Assembly: GCF_022846255.1 (NCBI RefSeq)
Contig: NZ_AP025682.1
DNA: 64,000 bases
Direction: 5' to 3' (one strand)
From: Escherichia coli
Lineage (GTDB): Bacteria > Pseudomonadota > Gammaproteobacteria > Enterobacterales > Enterobacteriaceae
The notes beneath the pieces were generated by a model that ran no database searches, had not been told where the DNA came from, and saw only the letters and a list, made by a program, of their open reading frames with translations. The translations under genes and the position numbers were made by a program. Positions 22,543-22,562 of this stretch are shown in pieces; the first letter of the stretch is position 1, and the number at the start of each line of letters is the position of its first letter.

Positions 22543-22562
22543 TAGGATTTTGTTATTTAAAC
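22543..22562 (+). promoter_or_regulatory. GAD box in the gadB promoter (GadE/GadX/GadW site)
   Basis: Exact 20-bp match TTAGGATTTTGTTATTTAAA about 80 bp upstream of the gadB ATG. Confidence 0.8.

Follow-up and report, generated by a model that had tools for sequence, protein, structure and literature searches.

The GAD box has reportedly been known since 2001, from work attributed to Castanie-Cornet & Foster, and is said to have been first defined as a cis element needed for the expression of gadA and gadBC, with GadE named as the activator. RcsB/GadE binding and GadE-dependent activation have been established for gadA of K-12, and for K-12 gadBC the evidence comes from ChIP-exo. GadE alone does not bind the GAD box in vitro, whereas the RcsB/GadE heterodimer does so at an apparent constant near 10 nM, with protection from -50 to -76; a G-to-C change in the box leads to the loss of both binding and GadE-dependent activation (PMC2887963). 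In gadA, 16 bp separate the box from the -35 element downstream (PMC2887963, Castanie-Cornet et al. 2010). The GAD box is conserved in gadB, and so is the RcsB box, a low-affinity repressor site that has a "C instead of G at the left end" in this gene (PMC2887963). At K-12 gadBC, the ChIP-exo peak of GadE is centred at -62.5, on the orthologous box (PMC4918353 supplement), and in a gadE deletion mutant the gadB and gadC transcripts change by log2 values of -6.4 and -5.9, respectively.

Here, we compared this element with its counterpart in a 64-kb stretch of Escherichia coli DNA, referred to as the window, which is collinear with K-12 MG1655 from ~1,591,384 down to 1,531,700 in reverse orientation and consists of ordinary E. 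coli DNA. The 20-mer TTAGGATTTTGTTATTTAAA occurs in the window as one exact copy at 22542-22561 on the plus strand and is identical to the sequence quoted in PMC4918353. No second site with up to three mismatches was found in the 64 kb, and none of 100 dinucleotide-preserving shuffles of the window contained a match. An earlier note on this DNA had reported an exact GAD box upstream of gadB at 22543-22562. The site is real, exact and unique, and it ends 79 bp before the gadB ATG, but the reported position is one base too late. The same note had seen no mismatch on realignment, and this holds, the window box being the same as the boxes of K-12 gadB and gadA. As far as can be read from the sequence, every box position is unchanged, including the G on which RcsB/GadE binding depends (changed to C in mutation M1). 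Considering its sequence, position, spacing and downstream genes together, we regard this 20-mer as almost certainly the GAD box of the gadBC promoter and, by analogy with K-12, as its probable RcsB/GadE activator site. It is an already known element in the state expected for E. coli.

The local gene order is pqqL, a 359-bp intergenic region, gadB, gadC and digH, and the neighbours match those of the K-12 gadBC locus, with pqqL upstream and gadB-gadC downstream. The upstream neighbour pqqL (19486-22281, plus strand) is intact and encodes 931 aa that are 99.2% identical to K-12. Also intact are gadB for glutamate decarboxylase B (22641-24041, plus strand; 466 aa, 100% identical to K-12 GadB) and gadC for the glutamate:GABA antiporter (24197-25732, plus strand; 511 aa, two substitutions compared to K-12). 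At the five N-terminal positions by which the isozymes are told apart, the window GadB is unlike GadA. In E. coli FDAARGOS_1259 and Ecol_732, the gadB promoter is directly preceded by a pqqL annotated as a pseudogene truncated at the N-terminus, in contrast to the intact pqqL of the window.

A sigma-70 consensus scan of the window did not pick up the gadB promoter, which fits a weak, activator-dependent promoter; the scan having missed it, we placed the promoter from the published spacing and the K-12 alignment, and the transcription start, -10 and -35 are all carried over from K-12. With the box ending at 22561 and the putative -35 hexamer TTGCTT (22578-22583, plus strand) beginning at 22578, the variable spacer has 16 bp (22562-22577, plus strand), which is the published spacing; the hexamer is the same in gadA and gadB. 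A candidate -10 hexamer, TACTTT (22601-22606, plus strand), was read from the sequence at a spacing of 17 bp from the -35. The K-12 ChIP-exo table combined with K-12 identity, the stretch from the -35 to the ATG being identical at 63/63 positions, predicts a transcription start at 22614 (plus strand), 27 nt before the ATG. The box centre (22551.5) lies at -62.5 from this predicted start. With the start carried over from K-12, the geometry is that published for the GAD box (centre at -62.5/-63 and 16 bp to the -35). The ChIP-exo coordinates were converted from U00096.2 to NC_000913.3 by an offset of 1,975, derived on the assumption of a 27-nt gadB leader, a value that we take as given. The same figure is presumably also the sum of the IS insertions that separate U00096.2 and NC_000913.3. 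With this offset, the K-12 GadE peak brackets the K-12 box symmetrically, with 6 nt on each side.

Downstream of the -35, a putative RcsB-box-like repressor site, CGATAAATCCTAC (22591-22603, plus strand), overlaps the start of the placed -10 hexamer. It fits the description of the low-affinity RcsB box, with CGATAAATCC in gadB against GGATAAATCC in gadA. The GAD box is flanked by two copies of the 8-mer CGATAAAT, at 22530-22537 and 22591-22598, 61 bp apart, and the downstream copy belongs to the RcsB-box-like element; both copies resemble tCGATAAATT, which we take to be the high-affinity motif of H-NS.

Compared to K-12 gadBC, the window carries the same 20 bp at the same distance from the ATG and a single substitution in the spacer (CACAAG against CACGAG; 15/16 positions identical), whereas upstream of the box it has another allele, which is rare and about 82% identical (215/262 aligned positions). 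The gadA box of K-12 and other Escherichia is the same 20-mer, followed at the same 16-bp spacing by a -35 element beginning TTGC (TTGCTT in K-12), and the RcsB-box-like element and Shine-Dalgarno region of K-12 gadA are the same as in window gadB. In contrast, the flanks of the gadA promoter box are unrelated to those of window gadB, with matches at 13/40 positions upstream and 3/16 in the spacer. The genomic context also differs: gadA lies in the acid fitness island beside gadX and gadW, outside this window.

The nearest complete genomes over 13 kb are phylogroup-B2 strains such as E2348/69 (98.7%), and in yddB, pqqL, gadC and digH the window is 99.5-99.7% identical to E2348/69. Against this strain, we counted 53 differences in 260 positions upstream of the box, none in the 20 positions of the box and three in the 79 positions from the box to the ATG (13/16 spacer positions identical). 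At the upstream divergence, a run of 20 unchanged bases has a probability of about 0.01. In an alignment of nine gadB promoters, of which six E. coli rows were collected by whole-region homology and are unbiased while three species representatives came from an exact-box search and are biased, the box was invariant at 20/20 columns, compared to 21/93 columns just upstream and 5/16 just downstream. Across the E. coli records we scored a 114-bp core (22527-22640) rather than box variants, and this core was at least 95% identical in 5,393 of 5,431 records, whereas the whole intergenic region was only 80-90% identical in 5,395 of them. We further searched 100,044 species-representative genomes for the exact 20-mer and found gad-linked copies in Escherichia only, namely in genomes labelled E. 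coli, E. albertii, E. whittamii and Escherichia sp. E1V33; the scan covered exact matches and listed no obvious representative for the E. coli type strain, so that absence from it is weak evidence. In all eight Escherichia copies (8/8), a start codon of gadA or gadB type follows at a distance of 79-80 bp. Judged by these alignments, the box is a real, constrained site that stays invariant against a highly variable background.

The density of differences from E2348/69, K-12 and 2013C-4282 outlines a recombinant patch with approximate limits of 22290-23250, which contains the gadB promoter and is set in a B2-type backbone. In three- and four-way comparisons, the window agrees with E2348/69 at nearly every base except between about 22,000 and 23,250; 52 window-unique differences fall within that interval, compared to one and five substitutions in the two flanks. 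Besides the gadB promoter, the patch takes in the last part of the intergenic region between pqqL and gadB and about 600 nt from the 5' end of gadB, and the window-unique changes in this gadB segment are all synonymous and mostly unlike gadA. From ~22,290 to 23,000 the window is essentially identical to E. coli 2013C-4282 (no differences at 22,500-22,999), whereas elsewhere the two differ at 2-20 sites per 250 bp. Few E. coli records have this upstream allele: an identity of 95% or more was reached by only 11 of 5,431. This distribution of differences indicates that the promoter came on, or survived in, a short homologous-recombination tract from a divergent lineage. In terms of the aligned bases, the swap exchanged the GadX-associated region upstream, and the box and the core promoter stayed as they were. 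Two other origins were considered and rejected. An origin of the poorly matching intergenic DNA in a divergent species does not agree with flanking genes that are 97.3% identical to K-12 and 99.5-99.7% identical to E2348/69, and a gadA-to-gadB conversion as the origin of the patch does not agree with the window-unique bases at the 5' end of gadB, most of which do not match K-12 gadA.

Identity of the box could in principle have arisen for reasons other than function. The box might have been copied between gadA and gadB by gene conversion or have hitch-hiked on a recently spread segment, and two features of the locus lend themselves to this reading: gadA and gadB are near-identical paralogues (five amino-acid differences), and the gadB promoter sits inside a recombinant patch. 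A conversion tract, however, would also homogenise the flanks, and in the comparison of gadA with gadB the box stands out from its surroundings, with 20/20 identical positions preceded by 13/40 and followed by 3/16; this pattern therefore speaks against gene conversion. The box is, moreover, unchanged across three deeply diverged classes of upstream allele and in other Escherichia species, and the window-unique changes at the gadB 5' end are, as noted, mostly unlike gadA. We accordingly consider conversion or hitch-hiking very improbable. Even less credible, to the point of being negligible, is that the box is a chance AT-rich 20-mer without meaning. In 298 Gb, chance does produce this 20-mer, as illustrated by three exact copies in unrelated metagenome-assembled genomes (Lentisphaeria, Bacteroidales) with no Gad homologue nearby, but the window shuffles gave 0 matches in 100, and every Escherichia copy occupies the fixed position 79-80 bp upstream of gadA or gadB.

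A different question is which regulators the constrained site serves. The earlier note had concluded from the exact box that GadE/GadX/GadW control of gadBC should be intact, which would follow if the 20-mer were an operator shared by GadE, GadX and GadW. A secondary source, which refers to Castanie-Cornet & Foster 2001, Ma 2002 and Tramonti 2002, states that GadW and GadX can repress by competing for "the gad box sequences" (PMC6128205). The motif of GadX/GadW, AtGtcTGATtTttatattat, nevertheless differs from the GAD box (PMC4918353), and the two show no match within three mismatches when the box is compared with AKGKCTGWTWTTWWYMYVAK. In K-12 ChIP-exo data, the GadX peaks at gadBC lie at -184, -225 and +66 and not at -63, the table lists no GadW peak at gadBC, and the peak at -62.5 belongs to GadE only (PMC4918353 supplement). 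The regulatory model of gadA also names a GadXW box apart from the GAD and RcsB boxes (PMC2887963). Within the window, the region equivalent to the K-12 GadX peaks at -225 and -184 (22370-22451, plus strand; peak coordinates mapped through alignments) matches K-12 at only 35/41 and 30/41 positions (73-85% identity), and orthologues of gadE, gadX and gadW are absent. A shared operator that would leave all three inputs to gadBC intact is thus improbable in our estimate. By motif and by K-12 in vivo occupancy, the box is not a GadX/GadW site, and some overlap in vitro is possible.

The sites of GadX/GadW are instead found in the same intergenic region, at another sequence about 130-150 bp further upstream than the GAD box. 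Sites of 42 bp for GadX/GadW have reportedly been described by Tramonti et al. in 2006 and 2008. The best motif of this type in the window, AGGGCTAATTTTTATGTGAT at 22395-22414, is orthologous to a K-12 motif and lies inside the equivalent of the K-12 GadX peaks. It has two mismatches, compared to one at the orthologous K-12 site, and the extra mismatch is a G-to-A change in the fixed CTG of the motif. This site is therefore not conserved in the way the box is. CTA is present at the same motif position in two other Escherichia genomes, and the G-to-A change can hence be regarded as a natural polymorphism. The motif scan with up to three mismatches was unspecific, giving six matches in the window against 3.9 expected, and only the orthologous site at 22395-22414 was used from it.

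As for the regulators themselves, K-12 GadE, GadX and GadW used as tblastn queries yielded no orthologue in the window and matched only the AraC-family paralogue YdeO, and in K-12 rcsB also maps elsewhere than this region. With gadE, gadX and gadW absent from the window, an intact cis site cannot show that control is intact in the strain. What remains of the claim on GadE/GadX/GadW control is that the box, the core promoter, gadB and gadC are unchanged or intact, whereas its part on the GadX/GadW input and on the presence of the regulators is not supported. The exact box speaks only for the cis input of GadE/RcsB. The intact box supplies the cis element that activation by GadE/RcsB requires. 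By inference from K-12, the RcsB/GadE heterodimer would bind the box ~62.5 bp upstream of the start and from there activate a weak promoter (TTGCTT, 17 bp, TACTTT), which would drive gadB and gadC, the decarboxylase and the antiporter of acid resistance.

The only acid-resistance regulator genes in the window are ydeO and safA. Both are intact (10728-11759), lie 11 kb from gadB and next to ydeP, and belong to the EvgA > YdeO > GadE branch, which turns on gadE. The ydeO gene spans 11001-11759, with an amino-acid identity of 97.6% for YdeO, and SafA is 93.8% identical over 64/65 aa. A 15-nt match, TTAGGATTTGTAATA at 8159-8173 on the minus strand, resembles the left half of the GAD box and lies just upstream of ydeP (start at 8201); it was found only by a scan with the printed degenerate GadE ChIP-exo motif, TTARGAWWWWAAATA, which gave eight matches in the window against 4.1 expected from shuffles, with 4 of 100 shuffles reaching eight. 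Within two mismatches, this degenerate motif did not recover the canonical box, and it was of no use here.

A box and core promoter that stay invariant inside a recombinant, highly diverged intergenic region provide a clean natural footprint of a functional site, and this footprint singles out the upstream GadX-bound region as the lineage-variable part of the promoter. GadW is reported to bind in vitro in the upstream region replaced by the patch, and H-NS presumably acts there as well. On the basis of the exchanged sequence, we tentatively suggest, while regarding it as rather unlikely, that swaps of the upstream allele may retune the GadX/GadW/H-NS input to gadBC while the GadE switch stays fixed. 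If this were true, we would expect a retuned induction threshold, noise and stationary-phase level of gadBC, and the regulation of gadBC in this strain would be quantitatively unlike that of both K-12 and its B2 relatives.

Several further differences from K-12 were observed in the window. Of the diguanylate cyclase gene dosC, only the final ~55 codons are left (27513-27721), with ~46 bp in place of about 1.26 kb of K-12 (1565922-1567186), and dosP (27749-30148) is intact downstream. E2348/69 has the same remnant structure, annotated as an incomplete diguanylate cyclase pseudogene, and the dosC truncation appears to be a lineage feature common to the window and this B2 strain. At the ydeT/yneL junction, where the K-12 usher is truncated, the window contains about 3.3 kb (1322-4601) that is absent from K-12 and presumably carries complete fimbrial genes. 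At 46922-46925, yddJ, yddK and yddL of K-12 (1544246-1546203, ~2 kb) are absent from the window. Two segments, 58225-61637 and 62306-63406, have no match in the rhsE/ydcC region of K-12, and a GGDEF-domain-like coding stretch at ~61092-61559 is 38% identical to residues 298-455 of DosC.
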